The translations under genes were made by a program, and so were the position numbers. From the NCBI GenBank assembly GCA_964612065.1, contig CAZTCD010000001.1, positions 7,013-71,012 of the forward strand: a stretch of 64,000 nucleotides of DNA, written 5' to 3'. Below are positions 38,014 through 45,052 of this stretch, one piece after another. Source of the stretch: an uncultured Bdellovibrionales bacterium (GTDB taxonomy: Bacteria > Bdellovibrionota > UBA1018 > CAIPTA01). Each line of letters opens with the position of its first letter. Positions within the stretch are counted from its first letter, which is position 1. Under the pieces are notes generated by a model. That model was not told the DNA's origin and searched no databases. It saw nothing but the letters and a program-made list of their open reading frames with translations.

Positions 38014-39773
38014 TTACGTTTTGGCAAGTGGTTCATTGAGTTTCGAGAAAAGTTCGAGAATATGCTCTGGCGACATATTCACCGAGGTTTTTTCTCCATA
38101 TTTTCTAGCGTAGAAAACTCCAGCAGCGATGTCTCGATCCCCTGCTGCAAGCATATAAGGGATCTTTTGGATTTGGGCCTCCCGAGTTTTCGCTCCCATC
38201 GTGTTATTGGATGTATCTACATCCACCCTTAGCCCGATGGATTTTAATTTTTCGGCCATATTTTTGCAGTACTCTACATGAGAGTCATTTATGGGAACAA
38301 AGCGAGCTTGAATCGGGGAGCACCAGAACGGGAGGGCTCCAGCGGTATGTTCGATCAGAATTCCCATGAATCGTTCAAGGGAACCGAGTACTGCACGGTG
38401 AATTACCACTGGTTGCTGGCGCGAATTGTCCGCCGCAACGTATTCCAAATTGAAGCGAGCAGGAAGCTGGTAATCAAGTTGGATAGTGGATAGCTGGAAG
38501 TAGCGTCCAATGGCGTCTTTGACATTGAAGTCGATTTTGGGCCCGTAAAAGGCACCGTCGTTCGCGTTGATCTTATAGGGGAGATTGTTTACTTTAATGG
38601 CACTTTCCAGTGCTGCTTCGGCTCTATCCCAGAGCTCGTCGGAACCGAGTCGCTTTTCAGGGCGGGTGCTCAAGTATACAAGAGGGTCCGATAAGCCGAA
38701 CACATCGTACACTTCCCGGATCATGCGGATTACGTTAGCCACTTCTTCCGCGATTTGATCTTCTCTTACGAAGATATGAGCGTCATCCTGGCAGAAGCTC
38801 CGCACGCGGGTTAGTCCGGCGGTTACTCCAGAGCGCTCGTAACGATGGAGTCTTCCGAAATCGGCCATGCGAATCGGAAGTTCCCTGTAAGAATGCTGTT
38901 TGGTACCGAAGATCAGCATATGGCAGGGGCAGTTCATTGGTTTTACGGCTACGTCCACTTCGTCCTGCTTGGAGAAGTACATGTTTTCTTTGTAGTTCGC
39001 GTAGTGCCCCGAGGTGTGCCAGAGATCCACGTTTAGAACCTGGGGTGTAATTACCTCTTCGTATCCGTACTTCGTATACAGACGGCGCATGAGGTTAGTG
39101 AGTTGGTTGTAAACCACGGCGCCTTTGGCATGAAAAAAGGGCATCGCCGGAGCTTCCGAATGAAAGCTGAACAGCTCAAGTTCTTTTCCGAGTTTTCGAT
39201 GGTCGCGCTTCTTAGCCTCTTCCATCATTTTTTCGTAGGCTTCTAGTTCATCTTTGGTTTCAAAGCAGAGGCCATAGATACGCGTGAGCATCGCGTTTTT
39301 TTCATTTCCCCGCCAATAAGCGCCCGCCATATGGGTGAGCTTGAATGCCTTGATGTCCCTTGTGGATGCTACGTGCGGTCCTTGGCACATATCGGTGAAT
39401 TCACCTTCAGTGTAGGTGCCAACTTGTTGCAGATTCAGGTCACGAATCAGCTCGAGTTTGAAGTGCTGGCCTTTGTCGCCAAAAAAACGAATCGCCTCTT
39501 CGCGGCTCATCACCCGTTGTTCGAATCTTCGGCCCTCCTTCACGATTTTTTTCATCTCGGCTTCGATCTTCGGAAGAATGCTTTCGTCAACCGGTTGAGG
39601 AAATTTGACGTCATAATAAAAACCATTGTCGATATCAGGGCCAACACCGAATTCTGAGCCCGGAAACAAGCGGGTGATAGCATGGGCCATTACGTGCGAG
39701 CAGGAGTGACGCATGGTTTGCAAGGGGGATAGTTTGGGGGTTTCTAGCAGCTCAGAAAGTTCTTTTTCCATAG
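38014..39773 (-). CDS. thrS: threonine--tRNA ligase
   Basis: The editing-domain motif is RHSCSHVMAHAI. The class II catalytic core has FGRLHRYERSGVTAGLTRVRSF. The C-terminal anticodon-binding domain is present. The start is set at MEKELSEL, giving 586 aa. No TGS domain is visible. Confidence 0.85.
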
Positions 39774-39980
39774 GCCAGGGAGTGTAACATCTCGCACTTC
39801 TGGATGAAATTCCTAAGCTATGCAACTCGGGGGATGGAGAACGGGCGTGAGACTGGTGATGTGTCGAGGGCATTTGGAACACGCCGAAATCCAATAATCC
39901 CCAGTTTTCAAATGGGAATCTGGCTCGGGTATCTATCGGGAAAACCCTACTGCGCGCCGAGTTAATCCGAAGATGCGCGA

Positions 39981-40526
39981 CTAAGCGGCCTTCTTTTCTT
40001 CTATTTGCGGCGCTGAAAGCTCCGGCACTAATGGTTTGGAACCTGCCCAGGATCCTAATGTGCGTAAGAAGTCTTCTTTGCCGCTAGGAAGAGCACTTAC
40101 GGGGAGATCAAATTTAGGGAATCCGAAAAACATATACCGAAAGAGCTGTGAGGGGTTTCTTTTGGTTTCGAAGTAGTAGATTTCAGAATGTAGTCCCTTA
40201 AATAAGCGAAGAGACAAAACGTCCTTCCAGGGAATTACTTCCGGTTGAAGCCAGGCTCCAAAATGGGTCACGCCATTCTCATTGAACTTTGCGAGAAGGT
40301 TGCCGTTCGAGTCGAGCCAAGCCGATACTCGAGCCTGCCTCCAGGCATCACAAAGCATAAAGATGCTGAACCAGAAGCAGAGCCCGCTCATGAAGGCGGA
40401 TGATGCTCGGTGAGAGAAGTAAGCGAAACCCACACCGAGAACCCAAAGTGCCGCGCTGTTGCTGATATAATGCGCGGATTCTTTCTCGTTAAGGCGGCAC
40501 TCGATTTCATTGCTGGAAGATTTCAT
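39981..40526 (-). CDS. hypothetical membrane protein
   Basis: The 181-aa ORF contains two or three TM helices. Confidence 0.4.
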   Translation of the reverse strand: MKSSSNEIECRLNEKESAHYISNSAALWVLGVGFAYFSHRASSAFMSGLCFWFSIFMLCDAWRQARVSAWLDSNGNLLAKFNENGVTHFGAWLQPEVIPWKDVLSLRLFKGLHSEIYYFETKRNPSQLFRYMFFGFPKFDLPVSALPSGKEDFLRTLGSWAGSKPLVPELSAPQIEEKKAA

Positions 40527-40596
40527 ATTATTCGTATCGGCTCTTGCCGCTTAACGCTTTACGGAGATTCGGGAAAACCCGGTTTTCAAAGGCTGA

Positions 40597-40968
40597 CTAG
40601 AAAGTTTTTCCGGTTTTCCTGGTTTTCCGAGTCTTAGGGTTCCATTGGAAGCTATCGAGATCGATGTGGCCGATATCTGACACCTGCACTCCTTCGCCGG
40701 TGAGCAGTCGCTTCTGCTTCAAAAATCCAGTTGAAGCCCAGGGAATGGAAATGGAGCCTTTCGAGTTGATCACCCGGTGCCAGGGCAGGCCGTACTTGGC
40801 GGAGCAAGAGGAAAGAACCCATAGTACACCCCGGGACCCATGTGGTTTTCCTGCCAGTGAGGCTATCTGGCCGTACGTGGCTACTCTTCCCATGGGAATT
40901 CGTTTTAGCCACCTGATCACTTGAAGCGAAAAAGGAGAGAGTGCCTTAGTGGTCTTATTGCCTCTCAA
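40597..40968 (-). CDS. atl: alkyltransferase-like protein (Ogt/MGMT DNA-binding domain with Trp in place of the active-site Cys)
   Basis: IPMGRVATYGQIASLAG...GLPWHRVINSKG shows PWHRV where methyltransferases have PCHRV. It is 123 aa and lacks the N-terminal MGMT domain. Confidence 0.7.
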   Translation of the reverse strand: MRGNKTTKALSPFSLQVIRWLKRIPMGRVATYGQIASLAGKPHGSRGVLWVLSSCSAKYGLPWHRVINSKGSISIPWASTGFLKQKRLLTGEGVQVSDIGHIDLDSFQWNPKTRKTRKTGKTF

Positions 40969-41506
40969 TTCTTCTCTCCATTACCCACCCATCCCTTTTT
41001 CCAGGATAGTATCTTGGCAGCCTGGCGGTTGCTCGAAAGCCCTGCTTTAGATAGAGGGCCAAAGCCGCAATATTATCCTGGGGCACATGCAATCGAATAG
41101 CGCGCTTTTTTCTATGCTGAGCAAGACGCAAGAGACGCTTCATTAGCAGGCTCCCGACTCCACGATTTCGTTTGTTTTGAGCTACGGCAAGGTCATAGAT
41201 AACCATCAATTTCGGCTCTATCAGAGAGTAATGAGCGAAACCTGCCACTTGATTGTCTTTGGAAAGTGCCACCAACAGTTCACCCAGATCACCGGTGCTT
41301 TCCAAAATTTTTGTGAATCCGCTGAGCGAGGTCACCAATTTTGAGTCATAGGATTGCTCTTCAATCCTGGAGATATCGGGCAGATGCTCATAGAGTGCTT
41401 CTGCTGTTTTCACGATATCACCCGATAACGTCGAATTGCCTCTTGATCCCCGTTGCCCCAGACTTTGTCTTTCAAGCTTCCTCCAGCATGCTCGATTATC
41501 CGCCAC
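40955..41506 (-). CDS. GNAT family N-acetyltransferase
   Basis: The acetyl-CoA binding motif is VAQNKRNRGVGSLLMKRLLRLAQ. Its 3' end overlaps the atl start by 14 nt. Confidence 0.7.
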   Translation of the reverse strand: MADNRACWRKLERQSLGQRGSRGNSTLSGDIVKTAEALYEHLPDISRIEEQSYDSKLVTSLSGFTKILESTGDLGELLVALSKDNQVAGFAHYSLIEPKLMVIYDLAVAQNKRNRGVGSLLMKRLLRLAQHRKKRAIRLHVPQDNIAALALYLKQGFRATARLPRYYPGKRDGWVMERRIERQ

Positions 41507-41579
41507 GAGGGGAGCATTCGAGTCGCCACCTCATGTCCAATATGCCCACCATCGATGGCGGAGATTTTCATGGCCCCCA

Positions 41580-42365
41580 TTACCATTCTCTTTGATAAAC
41601 GCTGACGCATGCCGGGTGCGGCAGCGGATAAAAGTCACAATCAAGGTGTGCTCTCTCCAAAAGTAATAAGCCGCTGTCGTGTCGGGCTTTGTCAAATTCC
41701 TCTTCTTCCCATGCCCCCTGATGGACCAATACCAATAAGGCACCCGGTTTCATGTTCCTGCGAAAGCTCAAGATCCACGGTTTCGGGTTTCCGAAATAAG
41801 AAGGCAGCCCCCACGCTAACGCCGGATTAATGCTGACAAACGGATAGAAACAGCAAATCAGGTCGACCGGATCGTTCCATAGAAAATAGTCCCCTTCTAC
41901 GTACCTGTCTGCTGCATTTACCAGGTTCAAGTAATACTTTGCCTTGTCCCAGCGTGAGTGGAAGCCGTGTAATAGGGGAAACGGATCGACCTCGATTCCT
42001 GTGATGCGCGTGTTTGCGTAAAAATTTCTGAAGAATAGCCGCAAGCTCGGGATCCGGGCGAAGTCTTGGCAGCCGGGTTCGGCAATTTCTAGTTCGAGAA
42101 GATCAGTTCTCAGGTGGGGCGCTACCAAGCGGTCGAGCACCCAAAGGGTCCATAAATTTTTTTTATATACTTCAGGGCTAAGCCTCGCAGCAAAAGATCC
42201 CAGCCCATACTTTTTCTCGAGGTTTGCCTCCGTATCGGTCCGCAAAGAGCCGTTATCACCCGATTCAAGGTAACCTTCGCGGCGAAAACGAAAGTGTGTC
42301 CGAATGGTCCAGAAAATGTGATTTCTGGCGGACAGCAGCCTTTCGGTGAGGGGGAGGCGGTGCAT
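41580..42365 (-). CDS. hypothetical protein
   Basis: The 261-aa ORF is transcribed divergently from the acyl-ligase fusion gene. It has no recognisable motif. Confidence 0.4.
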   Translation of the reverse strand: MHRLPLTERLLSARNHIFWTIRTHFRFRREGYLESGDNGSLRTDTEANLEKKYGLGSFAARLSPEVYKKNLWTLWVLDRLVAPHLRTDLLELEIAEPGCQDFARIPSLRLFFRNFYANTRITGIEVDPFPLLHGFHSRWDKAKYYLNLVNAADRYVEGDYFLWNDPVDLICCFYPFVSINPALAWGLPSYFGNPKPWILSFRRNMKPGALLVLVHQGAWEEEEFDKARHDSGLLLLERAHLDCDFYPLPHPACVSVYQREW

Positions 42366-42406
42366 AGATTTTCCTATATTGATAATCTATCCTGAATTCT
42401 CTCCAT

Positions 42407-45052
42407 ATGAGCAGTCTACATAATACAATCTTTTCACTTTACCAACAGCGCGGGAGCGGGACCGCCTTCAAGCTGCAGCTCGAAGCGGGGGGATACCGGA
42501 AAGTATCGTTCGCCGATGCCAGACTGTTGTCTCTTAAGTTGAGTGCTTATTTGCGCTCCAAGGGGGTGGTTGCAGGGGATAAAGTAATGATCGTTTCGGA
42601 AAACGCTCCGGAATGGCCGGTCGCCGCGCTCGCCGTACTGAATTTACGGGCTGTCCTGGTTCCAGTAGCCGCCATAGGCTCTAATTTCGAAATCGAGAAC
42701 GTGTTCCGGGCTGCTGCTCCGAAGTTTTGTATTTACTCTCAGGAAATCTCGGGAGCGCGACACCTGGGTGAATTGCTAAAGGCAGAGAACACGGGTTCGA
42801 TTTGTTGGAGAACCCAGGACGATGACCCGATCGGGCGCTGGGTGGAATCACAGGATCCCGATCAAGTGGACCAATCTTCAGGGGACAACGATCCGGCTCT
42901 TCTTATCTTTACTTCTGGTACAACCGGCAATCCGAAAGGAGTGCCGATTACTCACGGAAATATTCTTTCCAATGCGAGAGCTGTTGTCGGTACCTTGAGC
43001 GTTTCGGAGTATGATCGTGTGGTCTCTGTTCTGCCTTTGTCCCATATGCTCGAGTTCACCGGGGGATATGTTTTAACTTCTCTGATCGGTGCCGAAGTTA
43101 CTTACATAAAAAGCCTGAAGCCGGAAGACCTTATTCAGGCTCTTCGAGACTCCAAGGCCACTGTATTGATCGCGGTTCCGCTTCTATTTGAGGTTATTTC
43201 CCGAAATTTACAGGCAAAACTGAACAATCTGTCTGGCCCTCTTAAAAGAATGTTTTCACTTTTCTCAGTTTGGACCATGTCGTTCCCTGCTCTCGGGAAA
43301 GTGCTGTTTTATCCGATTCATGCGAAATTGGGAGGAAGCATTCGCTTTCTTGTGGCAGGCGGGGCACGCCTGCAGCCTCAGACTTTTGATTACTTCAGAG
43401 GTCTTGGGATTACCATTCTCCAAGGGTACGGGCTTACGGAAACCTCGCCGGTCCTTACATTTACAACGATGGAAACAGCCGCCCCTGATCATGTGGGTGC
43501 GCCAGTTCCTGGAGTAGAGATCGGAATTTTCGATTCGAGTGGCAACAGGTTGGATAATGGCCAAGAGGGCGAGATCTGGGCCAAGGGTCCAAGTGTTTTT
43601 TCCGGCTACCTGAATTCCGAACAGAATATGGAAACGTTTTCGAACGGATGGTTTCGCACCGGCGATCTGGGCACGCTGGATGCTTCTAATCTTCTTAGAA
43701 TTACTGGGCGGAAGAAGGACATTATCGTTACTGCTGCAGGAAAGAACGTCTATCCGGATGAGATTGAAGGTCTGGTGATGGCCTCCGGAAGTTTTTTGGA
43801 AGTGGCCGCAATGGGAATTAATGATTCTTCGGGGCATGAAAAGATCGTTTTGGTAGTTGTCCCGGACAAGACTCGTTTTCTGGGCTTGGCCCAGGCAGAA
43901 GTCTCTAGAGAATGCGAAAAATTAGCTCTCGAAAGCACCAAGTCACTGGCGGAATACAAATGGCCTCAACGAGTGGAGGTTCTCTTTGAAGACCTTCCTA
44001 AGACCAGTACCCGGAAAGTAAAAAAGCACGAGCTTAAGAAGAGGTTGGAACGACTAAAGGAAAATAGTACCACTGCACCCGCTGAAGGCGGAGAAGCGCT
44101 GAATCTGAAGAATGCGCTTGAGCTGGCGATAGCAAACGGTATTTCGGAAATCACCAAAGTCGAACCGGCCAATATTCGCTTAGAGCACTCCCTCTCAAAG
44201 GATCTCGGGCTGGACTCCCTTACCTTTGTTGAACTCGTGGGAGAGGTGGAGAAAAAGTTCAATGCGAGAATAGAGGGGGTAGATTTTTCAGCAATAGTAA
44301 CTGTGAAGGATTTGGTGAGTGCTTTACAGTTCACCTCGATGGATAAGACCGGGGCTTCTATTTTTAATAAGGTTTTTTTCGCCGATTTCAGACCAATCGA
44401 AAATCAAGGTTTTATATGGGCAGTGGTACGGGGGGCTTTCAATCGATTGGTCCGAGTACTTCTAAGATATAGGTACGATATAGAGGTTGAGGGAGTGGAA
44501 AATTTGGAGGGGGATGGCCCATTCATTTTTACTCCCAATCACTCTAGCCATTTCGATTTGCTGTCCATTGCCGGTTCTATTCCGGCGCGAATGATCCATC
44601 GGACATTTGCGGTTGCAGCCAAGGACTATTTTTTTAATGGCACATTGAAATCACTTGGAGCCCGTGCATTCGTTAATGCGATTCCTTTTGACCGAAAAGG
44701 GAGAGTGAATGAAAGCATGCAAGCCTGCCGAGAAGCCATAGATCAGGGAAACAGCCTGGTGATATTCCCTGAAGGCACGAGATCTCCCAATGGCAGCGTT
44801 CAAGAGTTTAAATCGGGAGTGGGACAGCTATTGGCAGGCCATCCCGAAGTTAAGGCTGTGCCTGTATATATCGAGGGTGCTTATCAGATTATGCCGAAAG
44901 GGGCTAGCCTGCCGGGTTCGGGCAAACTCCGTGTGAGGTATGGACGACCGATATCATTTAGGGATATGAGTTCCGAGGCGGAAAGCCTGAAGCGGATTTC
45001 CGAGAGGCTTCGTGCTGAGGTGCTTGATCTCGTGTACGGAAGACTTAATTGA
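42407..45052 (+). CDS. tri-domain fusion: acyl-AMP/CoA ligase, phosphopantetheine carrier domain and PlsC-type lysophospholipid acyltransferase
   Basis: The AMP-binding motif is LIFTSGTTGNPKGV. The carrier domain is GLDSLTFVELVGEVE (DSL). The acyltransferase motifs are NHSSHFD and FPEGTRSPNG. Size is 881 aa. Confidence 0.75.
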   Translation: MSSLHNTIFSLYQQRGSGTAFKLQLEAGGYRKVSFADARLLSLKLSAYLRSKGVVAGDKVMIVSENAPEWPVAALAVLNLRAVLVPVAAIGSNFEIENVFRAAAPKFCIYSQEISGARHLGELLKAENTGSICWRTQDDDPIGRWVESQDPDQVDQSSGDNDPALLIFTSGTTGNPKGVPITHGNILSNARAVVGTLSVSEYDRVVSVLPLSHMLEFTGGYVLTSLIGAEVTYIKSLKPEDLIQALRDSKATVLIAVPLLFEVISRNLQAKLNNLSGPLKRMFSLFSVWTMSFPALGKVLFYPIHAKLGGSIRFLVAGGARLQPQTFDYFRGLGITILQGYGLTETSPVLTFTTMETAAPDHVGAPVPGVEIGIFDSSGNRLDNGQEGEIWAKGPSVFSGYLNSEQNMETFSNGWFRTGDLGTLDASNLLRITGRKKDIIVTAAGKNVYPDEIEGLVMASGSFLEVAAMGINDSSGHEKIVLVVVPDKTRFLGLAQAEVSRECEKLALESTKSLAEYKWPQRVEVLFEDLPKTSTRKVKKHELKKRLERLKENSTTAPAEGGEALNLKNALELAIANGISEITKVEPANIRLEHSLSKDLGLDSLTFVELVGEVEKKFNARIEGVDFSAIVTVKDLVSALQFTSMDKTGASIFNKVFFADFRPIENQGFIWAVVRGAFNRLVRVLLRYRYDIEVEGVENLEGDGPFIFTPNHSSHFDLLSIAGSIPARMIHRTFAVAAKDYFFNGTLKSLGARAFVNAIPFDRKGRVNESMQACREAIDQGNSLVIFPEGTRSPNGSVQEFKSGVGQLLAGHPEVKAVPVYIEGAYQIMPKGASLPGSGKLRVRYGRPISFRDMSSEAESLKRISERLRAEVLDLVYGRLN

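Follow-up and report, generated by a model that had tools for sequence, protein, structure and literature searches.

Quite probably, the window (the whole 64,000-nucleotide stretch of DNA that was analysed) carries a functional alkyltransferase-like protein (ATL) gene at the distal end of a minus-strand operon, with the juxtaposition of this gene and a GNAT acetyltransferase gene (GNATb) being lineage-specific and not a conserved two-component system. ATLs are a well-described bridge between the recognition of base damage and nucleotide excision repair (NER), and genes for "MGMT family proteins" are common in bacteria and archaea. The features of the ATL gene and its junction with GNATb are:

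40597..40968, minus strand: ATL gene, 123 aa, TTG start; core of residues 12-110, flanked by a disordered tail on either side
40780..40782, minus strand: TGG codon of Trp63, read from the sequence, at the site of the alkyl-acceptor Cys of true alkyltransferases (AGTs) (PWHRV vs PCHRV)
40955..40968, minus strand: overlap of the GNATb 3' end and the ATL 5' end, 14 nt, GNATb TAA stop included
40976..40979, minus strand: GGAG, Shine-Dalgarno-like, 7 nt 5' of the ATL TTG and within the GNATb coding region
40955..41413, minus strand: GNATb, a RimI/NAT-like GNAT of 152 aa with a GTG start (PF00583, E 5.5e-17)

By every sequence and fold criterion tested, the 123-aa protein is an ATL. It contains a single PF01035 domain according to Pfam (E 6.1e-21), in which residues 12-94 of 123 cover profile positions 1-81 of 81. 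Neither a further domain nor an AGT N-terminal domain is found by Pfam or in the fold model, which comprises a PF01035-type domain and disordered tails. The ORF contains YGLPWHRVINSKG, as read from both the ORF list and the raw sequence, and carries the motif L61-P-W-H-R-V-I67. Trp63 of this motif aligns with Trp56 of Atl1 and with the Cys in PCHRV of E. coli Ada-C, so that the nucleophilic Cys by which AGTs are recognized is replaced by a Trp, as claimed in the sequence-only reading. In addition, Tyr32 and Arg46 align with the base-flipping Tyr25 and the arginine finger Arg39 of Atl1, respectively. In an alignment of 34 sequences of relatives, Tyr32, Arg46, Pro62, Trp63, Arg65 and Val66 are invariant, which rules out the absence of the Tyr/Arg lesion-binding residues that had been named as a possible refutation. 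The features matched here, including the conserved Tyr and Arg finger, are those that define ATLs in a 2023 review (PMC10779285).

The assignment to the ATLs, which had been proposed from the Ogt/MGMT C-terminal helix-turn-helix and the Arg-finger region, is borne out by the closest sequence and fold matches. When all PDB sequences were searched with phmmer, the best two matches were the structurally characterized ATLs vpAtl of Vibrio parahaemolyticus (2kif, E 1.2e-18) and Atl1 (3gva, E 4e-14), with true alkyltransferases ranking lower (E 6e-6 or weaker). The AF2 model of the ATL has a pLDDT of 90, the first 11 and the last 12 residues being low-confidence tails, and matches 2kif with a TM-score of 0.88 (rmsd 2.0 Å) and 3gva with 0.80 in Foldseek, compared to 0.40-0.49 for AGTs. 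Furthermore, the NCBIfam model TIGR00589 (ogt) scores 41.6 bits on the ATL ORF, below its cutoff of 46.4, and the Ogt and Ada equivalogs also remain below theirs (34 against 192 and 27.8 against 345, respectively). The sole Cys of the ORF, Cys55, lies 8 residues upstream of Trp63 at what we take to be the Asn137 hinge position of human MGMT, judged by counting without gaps from the Arg finger along the human sequence. As a substitute alkyl acceptor, Cys55 was rejected, since Cys and Ser alternate at this position among close relatives and a Trp-to-Cys change gives the E. coli ATL no transferase activity (PMC10779285). About 1,360 homologues of the ATL were retrieved, the source-named ones including "MGMT family protein", and the closest are 64-65% identical. 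With this protein, a well-known family gains a divergent new member from Bdellovibrionota.

With the bacterial ATLs vpAtl, E. coli Atl/YbaZ and Thermus thermophilus TTHA1564, the window ATL shares a single AGT-C-terminal-like domain of ~100 residues and the PW(H/F)RV motif with Trp for Cys, next to the conserved Tyr and Arg finger; the identity to vpAtl is about 40%. It differs from them in its tails of low model confidence, which are 11 residues long at the N-terminus and 12 residues long and basic at the C-terminus, the latter being KTRKTRKTGKTF, in a TTG start that is embedded in the upstream GNAT gene, and in its origin from an uncultured Bdellovibrionota lineage. Compared to Schizosaccharomyces pombe Atl1 (3gva, 3gx4), the stretch PWHRVINS.G.IS is identical, whereas the pocket residues Pro50 and Arg69 are replaced by Ala57 and Pro76 in the sequence alignment, and the host NER is bacterial instead of eukaryotic. 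The non-conserved Pro50/Arg69 and the basic C-terminal tail suggest possible differences of detail in which lesions are preferred and how strongly DNA is bound non-specifically. With the AGTs (Ogt, Ada-C and human MGMT), the window ATL has the DNA-binding, base-flipping helix-turn-helix domain PF01035 in common, but it lacks both the acceptor Cys and the N-terminal domain, and its E-values in the PDB search are ~1e-5 for AGTs against 1e-18 for ATLs.

The TTG at 40968..40966 is the sole workable start of the ATL gene, because the frame is interrupted upstream by a TAA at 40983..40981 and residue 12 already corresponds to position 1 of the PF01035 profile. With the TAA of GNATb at 40957..40955, 14 nt are common to both frames, and the overlap that had been reported from the letters of the sequence agrees with the ORF coordinates and the raw sequence. 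The same GGAG-N7-TTG layout is found at the orthologous locus L093. The same organism is represented by three further assemblies, which are independent and derive from three different sequencing runs (L090-L092, 99.84-99.96% identical over the region); they show one variable site in the ATL gene, at 40837, where GGG is changed to GGA, which is synonymous for Gly44. The TGG codon of Trp63 is identical in these three further assemblies and is not a base-call error, which excludes a second possible refutation that had been raised.

The remaining genes of the operon and its downstream flank are:

41580..42365, minus strand: first operon gene, 261-aa protein with a predicted class I SAM-methyltransferase fold
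41410..41610, minus strand: GNATa remnant, a 66-aa ORF and C-terminal piece of a second GNAT; its TGA overlaps the GTG of GNATb (GTGA)
39981..40526, minus strand: predicted membrane protein, 181 aa, between the variable slot described below and thrS; 72% identical to its L002 orthologue

On the minus strand, the order is thus methyltransferase-fold gene, GNATa remnant, GNATb and ATL, followed by the 181-aa membrane protein gene and thrS. The AF2 model of the 261-aa protein has a pLDDT of 95.1, and its top Foldseek matches are all class I methyltransferases (E ~1e-10 to 1e-7, TM ~0.5, 10-16% identity). This similarity to SAM methyltransferases is generic, and the protein is predicted to adopt a methyltransferase fold. 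It represents, as a by-product of this analysis, an uncharacterized predicted methyltransferase-fold family of 75 homologues without a match in Pfam or NCBIfam, the few taxon-labelled members of which are from Bdellovibrionota, plus one 'Proteobacteria'. GNATa is intact in relatives, where it is an Acetyltransf_3-type protein of 171 aa. The remnant is recognized by tblastn of residues 99-169 of L002 GNATa against window positions 41625..41419 (42% identity over 71 residues, E 5.6e-9) and is supported by phmmer (E 1.8e-9). The 181-aa membrane protein is also present in L090-L093 and L097.

The GNATb gene extends over 40955..41413 and is not the maximal 183-aa ORF reaching 41506, to which the sequence-only reading had extended it, 93 nt too far. 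In a BLASTP comparison with the L002 orthologue, GNAT homology begins exactly at Val32 of the longer ORF, which is the GTG at 41413, and the recorded product P0121 is an identical 152-aa GNATb with the same GTG start. GNATb has both the GNAT domain and the R/Q-x-x-G-x-G/A acetyl-CoA-binding loop of the GNAT superfamily, the latter as R82-N-R-G85-V-G87 (RNRGVG), of which R82, G85 and G87 are invariant in alignment A5. Its best PDB matches are the archaeal Ard1 N-terminal acetyltransferase 4pv6 and RimI 2cnm. With RimI, archaeal Ard1 and eukaryotic NAT it shares the GNAT fold, the R-x-x-G-x-G loop and an LHV...N..A..LY..GF core. However, it scores below the equivalog cutoffs of TIGR01575 (rimI; 65.9 bits, cutoff 86.4) and NF007025 (34.1, cutoff 173), and by these scores it is RimI/NAT-like only and not RimI proper. 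Among 1.84 billion representatives searched with HMMER, GNATb has few relatives: a single further 50%-identity cluster reaches E<=1e-30, another one 1e-23, and 17 clusters E<=1e-10. No relatives were obtained when metagenomes were scanned with GNATb peptide patterns. In contrast to the RimI, Ard1 and NAT proteins, GNATb forms a tiny, fast-evolving and clade-restricted branch.

The surroundings are those of an ordinary chromosome, with nusA, infB, truB, thrS, an RlmL-like gene, alanine racemase, DsbD and others. The closest labelled member of the ThrRS cluster is from an uncultured Bdellovibrionota bacterium, and the ATL has its best genome matches in MAGs of Bdellovibrionaceae and Bdellovibrionales. 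Among the 26 window ORFs scanned against Pfam, no uvr, ogt, ada or alkA was found, and an HMM built from 34 ATLs, run over all frames of the 64-kb window, detected no second Ogt/Ada/ATL (PF01035-type) domain. A reading as a defence island was dropped, as the five operon products had no match among the PADLOC defence-system models.

Because the weak TTG start of the ATL is located 14 nt within GNATb and is preceded by a GGAG, the two genes probably share a transcript, and translation of the ATL is probably coupled, at a low level, to that of GNATb. The translational coupling that had been implied in the sequence-only reading is plausible from this gene anatomy, given the real overlap and the Shine-Dalgarno-like GGAG. 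Coupling to GNATb would offset the weak TTG start and at the same time keep the level of ATL low. The operon transcript would comprise the methyltransferase-fold gene, the GNATa remnant, GNATb and the ATL. As a consensus scan found no terminator-like site after the ATL, the 181-aa membrane protein gene may be co-transcribed with it. Promoter and terminator consensus scans of 39800-42600 are uninformative: shuffled controls gave more sites than the actual sequence, in which no site coincides with an operon boundary.

ATLs bind O6-alkylguanine, are devoid of transferase activity and recruit UvrA/UvrC (PMC10779285). By homology, the window ATL would bind O6-alkylguanine in DNA via its helix-turn-helix, with Tyr32 and the Arg46 finger flipping the lesion out into a pocket capped by Trp63 (PMC10779285). 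It would accept no alkyl group and would mark the lesion for UvrABC nucleotide excision repair by recruiting UvrA/UvrC. The adjacency of the GNAT and ATL genes has probably arisen by lineage-specific gene gain and loss in the slot between the methyltransferase-fold gene and thrS.

A survey of 80 ATL loci, taken from one-genome-per-species collections and covering many bacterial and archaeal phyla, revealed no GNATb relative within ±4 kb of the ATL (0/80, phmmer E<=10). GNATs were found as immediate ATL neighbours in 1 of 69 upstream and 2 of 72 downstream positions, none of them GNATb-type. These counts were obtained from Pfam tables of the 25 commonest families, to which the upstream GNAT of locus L030 was added via a custom RimI-like HMM. 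The total of 3/141, or ~2%, is judged to be near chance for so abundant a superfamily, the chance level being an estimate and not a genome-wide frequency. ATL neighbours are highly varied, with phosphoglycerate kinase being the commonest upstream (5/69). Across distant genomes, the adjacency expected of a conserved ATL-GNAT pair was not found.

The GNATb-ATL pair itself occurs in four lineages, namely the window, L002-L004, the P0001 contig and L093. In all four, GNATb has the ATL immediately downstream. These lineages are close relatives, in which ThrRS is 93% and ATL and GNATb are about 64% identical (window compared to L002), so that few independent events are represented. The junction of the two genes varies, with an overlap of 14 nt in the window, 11 nt in L093 and 4 nt (ATGA) in L002, where the four-gene operon has 4-nt overlaps throughout. 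Loci found via the methyltransferase-fold gene show at least six alternative contents of the slot between this gene and thrS:

L097, L094: opposite-strand dioxygenase only (L097), or opposite-strand HNH gene and dioxygenase (L094)
L098: GNATa alone
L101: ATL alone, with a GTGA overlap onto the methyltransferase-fold gene
P0145 contig: 72-aa ORF and ATL
L002, L093, P0001 contig: GNATa, GNATb and ATL
Window: GNATa remnant, GNATb and ATL

Since sister lineages retain the ATL without a GNAT, operon accretion in a variable slot is the best explanation for the adjacency. Near more distant homologues of the methyltransferase-fold gene, no ATL and no GNATb is encoded; the metagenome scan with this family gave 14 loci, many of which are too short to show neighbours. 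In the literature searched, no paper joins alkyltransferase-like proteins with GNAT, or with acetyltransferase and operon, and for ATL gene neighbourhoods only a general review of ATLs was found. The ATL/GNAT overlap, which was not found in the papers searched, is lineage-specific and carries little functional weight.

GNATb and the ATL could alternatively form a dedicated pair, in which GNATb acetylates the ATL, at its N-terminus or lysine-rich tails, or a repair partner, thereby tuning DNA binding or the hand-off to NER. The basic, disordered tails of the ATL clade are possible acetylation targets, the genes overlap in every GNATb-bearing lineage, no GNATb was seen without an ATL downstream, and both genes show a near-identical dN/dS of 0.15 between L002 and L093. 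However, such a unit, which the sequence-only reading had implied, is unlikely, because the pair is limited to one clade of close relatives, sister lineages keep the ATL without GNATb, and GNATs make up only ~2% of ATL neighbours elsewhere, without enrichment in the 80 other genomes. The tiny, clade-restricted GNATb family likewise speaks against it, and the literature searched gives no support.

It is rather improbable that the methyltransferase-fold protein is the real partner of the ATL, with the ATL serving, for example, as its DNA-targeting subunit or as a guard against off-target alkylation, and with the GNATs as later insertions. In at least three sublineages, the ATL lies behind the methyltransferase-fold gene, whether GNATs are present or not, including the direct GTGA overlap in L101, and the fold resembles nucleic-acid and protein amino-methyltransferases. 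Many homologues of this gene, however, are without a nearby ATL (L094-L097, L104, L109), and the ATLs of other phyla have unrelated neighbours. Moreover, the fold match is generic, and SAM binding is predicted only.

Doubtful as well is a broader version, in which the methyltransferase-fold/GNAT/ATL operon is a small undescribed module whose partners control or target the damage sensing or DNA binding of the ATL. GNATb could acetylate the basic ATL tails, or the ATL could work with a DNA- or RNA-directed methyltransferase. If true, this would constitute a regulated ATL, which is not described in the papers searched.

That the ATL ORF is unexpressed, being a decaying pseudogene or a chance ORF, is highly improbable: its TTG start is weak and gene callers skip it on identical DNA, but the Pfam match is strong (E 6e-21), all family-invariant residues are intact, the TTG and Shine-Dalgarno-like sequence are kept in L093, the frame is intact in four assemblies, and dN/dS is 0.11 against L002 and 0.15 for L002 against L093, values that point to purifying selection on the gene.

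The quite probable functional ATL is not represented in the public gene tables of the identical DNA (L090-L092), which have no ATL entry and list instead:

40664..40924, plus strand: antisense ORF, 86 aa

Judged from the conserved PF01035 domain on the opposite strand, this antisense ORF is very probably not a gene. The orthologue in L093 is publicly called from an internal start, yielding a 97-aa protein. The gene pair is one of at least six contents of its slot, which cautions against inferring function from one overlap between two genes. For annotation, the lesson is that small TTG-start genes nested in a preceding gene can go missing, and a survey built on public calls would score this organism as being without an ATL.

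The stretch from the gene for a methyltransferase-fold protein to thrS is a variable slot in the genomes of this lineage. Comparison of the window with the close relatives L002 and L093 and with the sister-lineage loci L094, L097, L098, L101 and the P0145 contig shows that the contents of the slot are gained and lost, these being the two GNAT genes (GNATa and GNATb), the alkyltransferase-like (ATL) gene, a Dioxygenase_C gene read from the opposite strand, and an HNH gene. The flanks are otherwise syntenic: to one side lies the gene for an Aas-like acyl-ligase/acyltransferase, to the other that for a 181-aa membrane protein, followed by thrS. The maximal ORF of thrS (38014..39894, minus strand, 626 aa, TTG start) is over-extended; the product on record is 585 aa long with its start at 39771, in agreement with orthologues of 584-585 aa. 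Three features upstream of GNATb are considered here:

41410..41610, minus strand: 66-aa ORF, the C-terminal remnant of GNATa, an Acetyltransf_3-type second GNAT
41580..42365, minus strand: 261-aa protein with a class I SAM-methyltransferase fold (model pLDDT 95)
881 aa, plus strand, divergent from the methyltransferase-fold gene: Aas-like gene (AMP-ligase/ACP/acyltransferase)

GNATa has a full length of 171 aa in L002, L093 and the sister-lineage locus L098. In the window, its 66-aa remnant shares 31 nt with the 3' end of the methyltransferase-fold gene and overlaps the start of GNATb through GTGA. Because it overlaps on both sides, the remnant may be a translated bridge from the methyltransferase-fold gene to GNATb.

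The methyltransferase-fold protein has no match in Pfam or NCBIfam. Its family comprises 75 homologues, whose labelled members belong to Bdellovibrionota, apart from one labelled 'Proteobacteria'. Among its conserved or invariant motifs are EPGCQDF, G-x-E-x-D, FYPFVS..PALAWG and HQGxWEE. Its glycine-rich SAM loop departs from the typical form and, unlike in amino-methyltransferases, the FYPF motif lacks the D/N. The start codons of this gene and the Aas-like gene are separated by 41 nt (42366..42406), in which no sigma-70-like promoter was detected, and the divergent arrangement is kept in the relatives L090, L097, L098 and L101.

Where the DNA is 99.8-99.96% identical to that of the window, public gene calls report an 86-aa antisense ORF (40664..40924, plus strand) and skip the ATL gene (40597..40968, minus strand); in L093 the orthologous ATL is called from an internal GTG, yielding a protein of 97 aa. 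Across L090-L093 the calls overlook the conserved GGAG-N7-TTG start, and for this reason the protein collection contains no exact match to the ATL of the window.

The ATLs nearest to that of the window carry a basic C-terminal tail, formed here by residues 112-123 (40597..40635; KTRKTRKTGKTF) and appearing in relatives as KK..K...PR(L/M)FS in an alignment of 34 ATL relatives, in which the shorter proteins lack it. The tail is modelled at low confidence in the predicted structure and might provide extra non-specific DNA affinity. Cys55 (codon 40804..40806), the sole cysteine of the protein, lies nine residues past the Arg finger, which by ungapped spacing corresponds to the hinge position Asn137 of human MGMT. 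Since Cys and Ser alternate at this position across the subfamily, Cys55 is unlikely to serve as alkyl acceptor.

Among ATL loci from other species (L005-L084), the only recurrent upstream neighbour found is phosphoglycerate kinase, which immediately precedes the ATL gene in 5 of the 69 genomes, possibly related lineages with shared synteny. In another relative, at locus L085 (4001..6336), an ATL 58% identical to that of the window (P0006) lies directly upstream of two genes, one encoding an Ada-AlkA fusion and one encoding Ogt, and genes for an AlkZ-like protein and a Pirin lie upstream of the ATL. Together, these genes resemble a cluster for alkylation repair in which an ATL and a true alkyltransferase (AGT) are both present.
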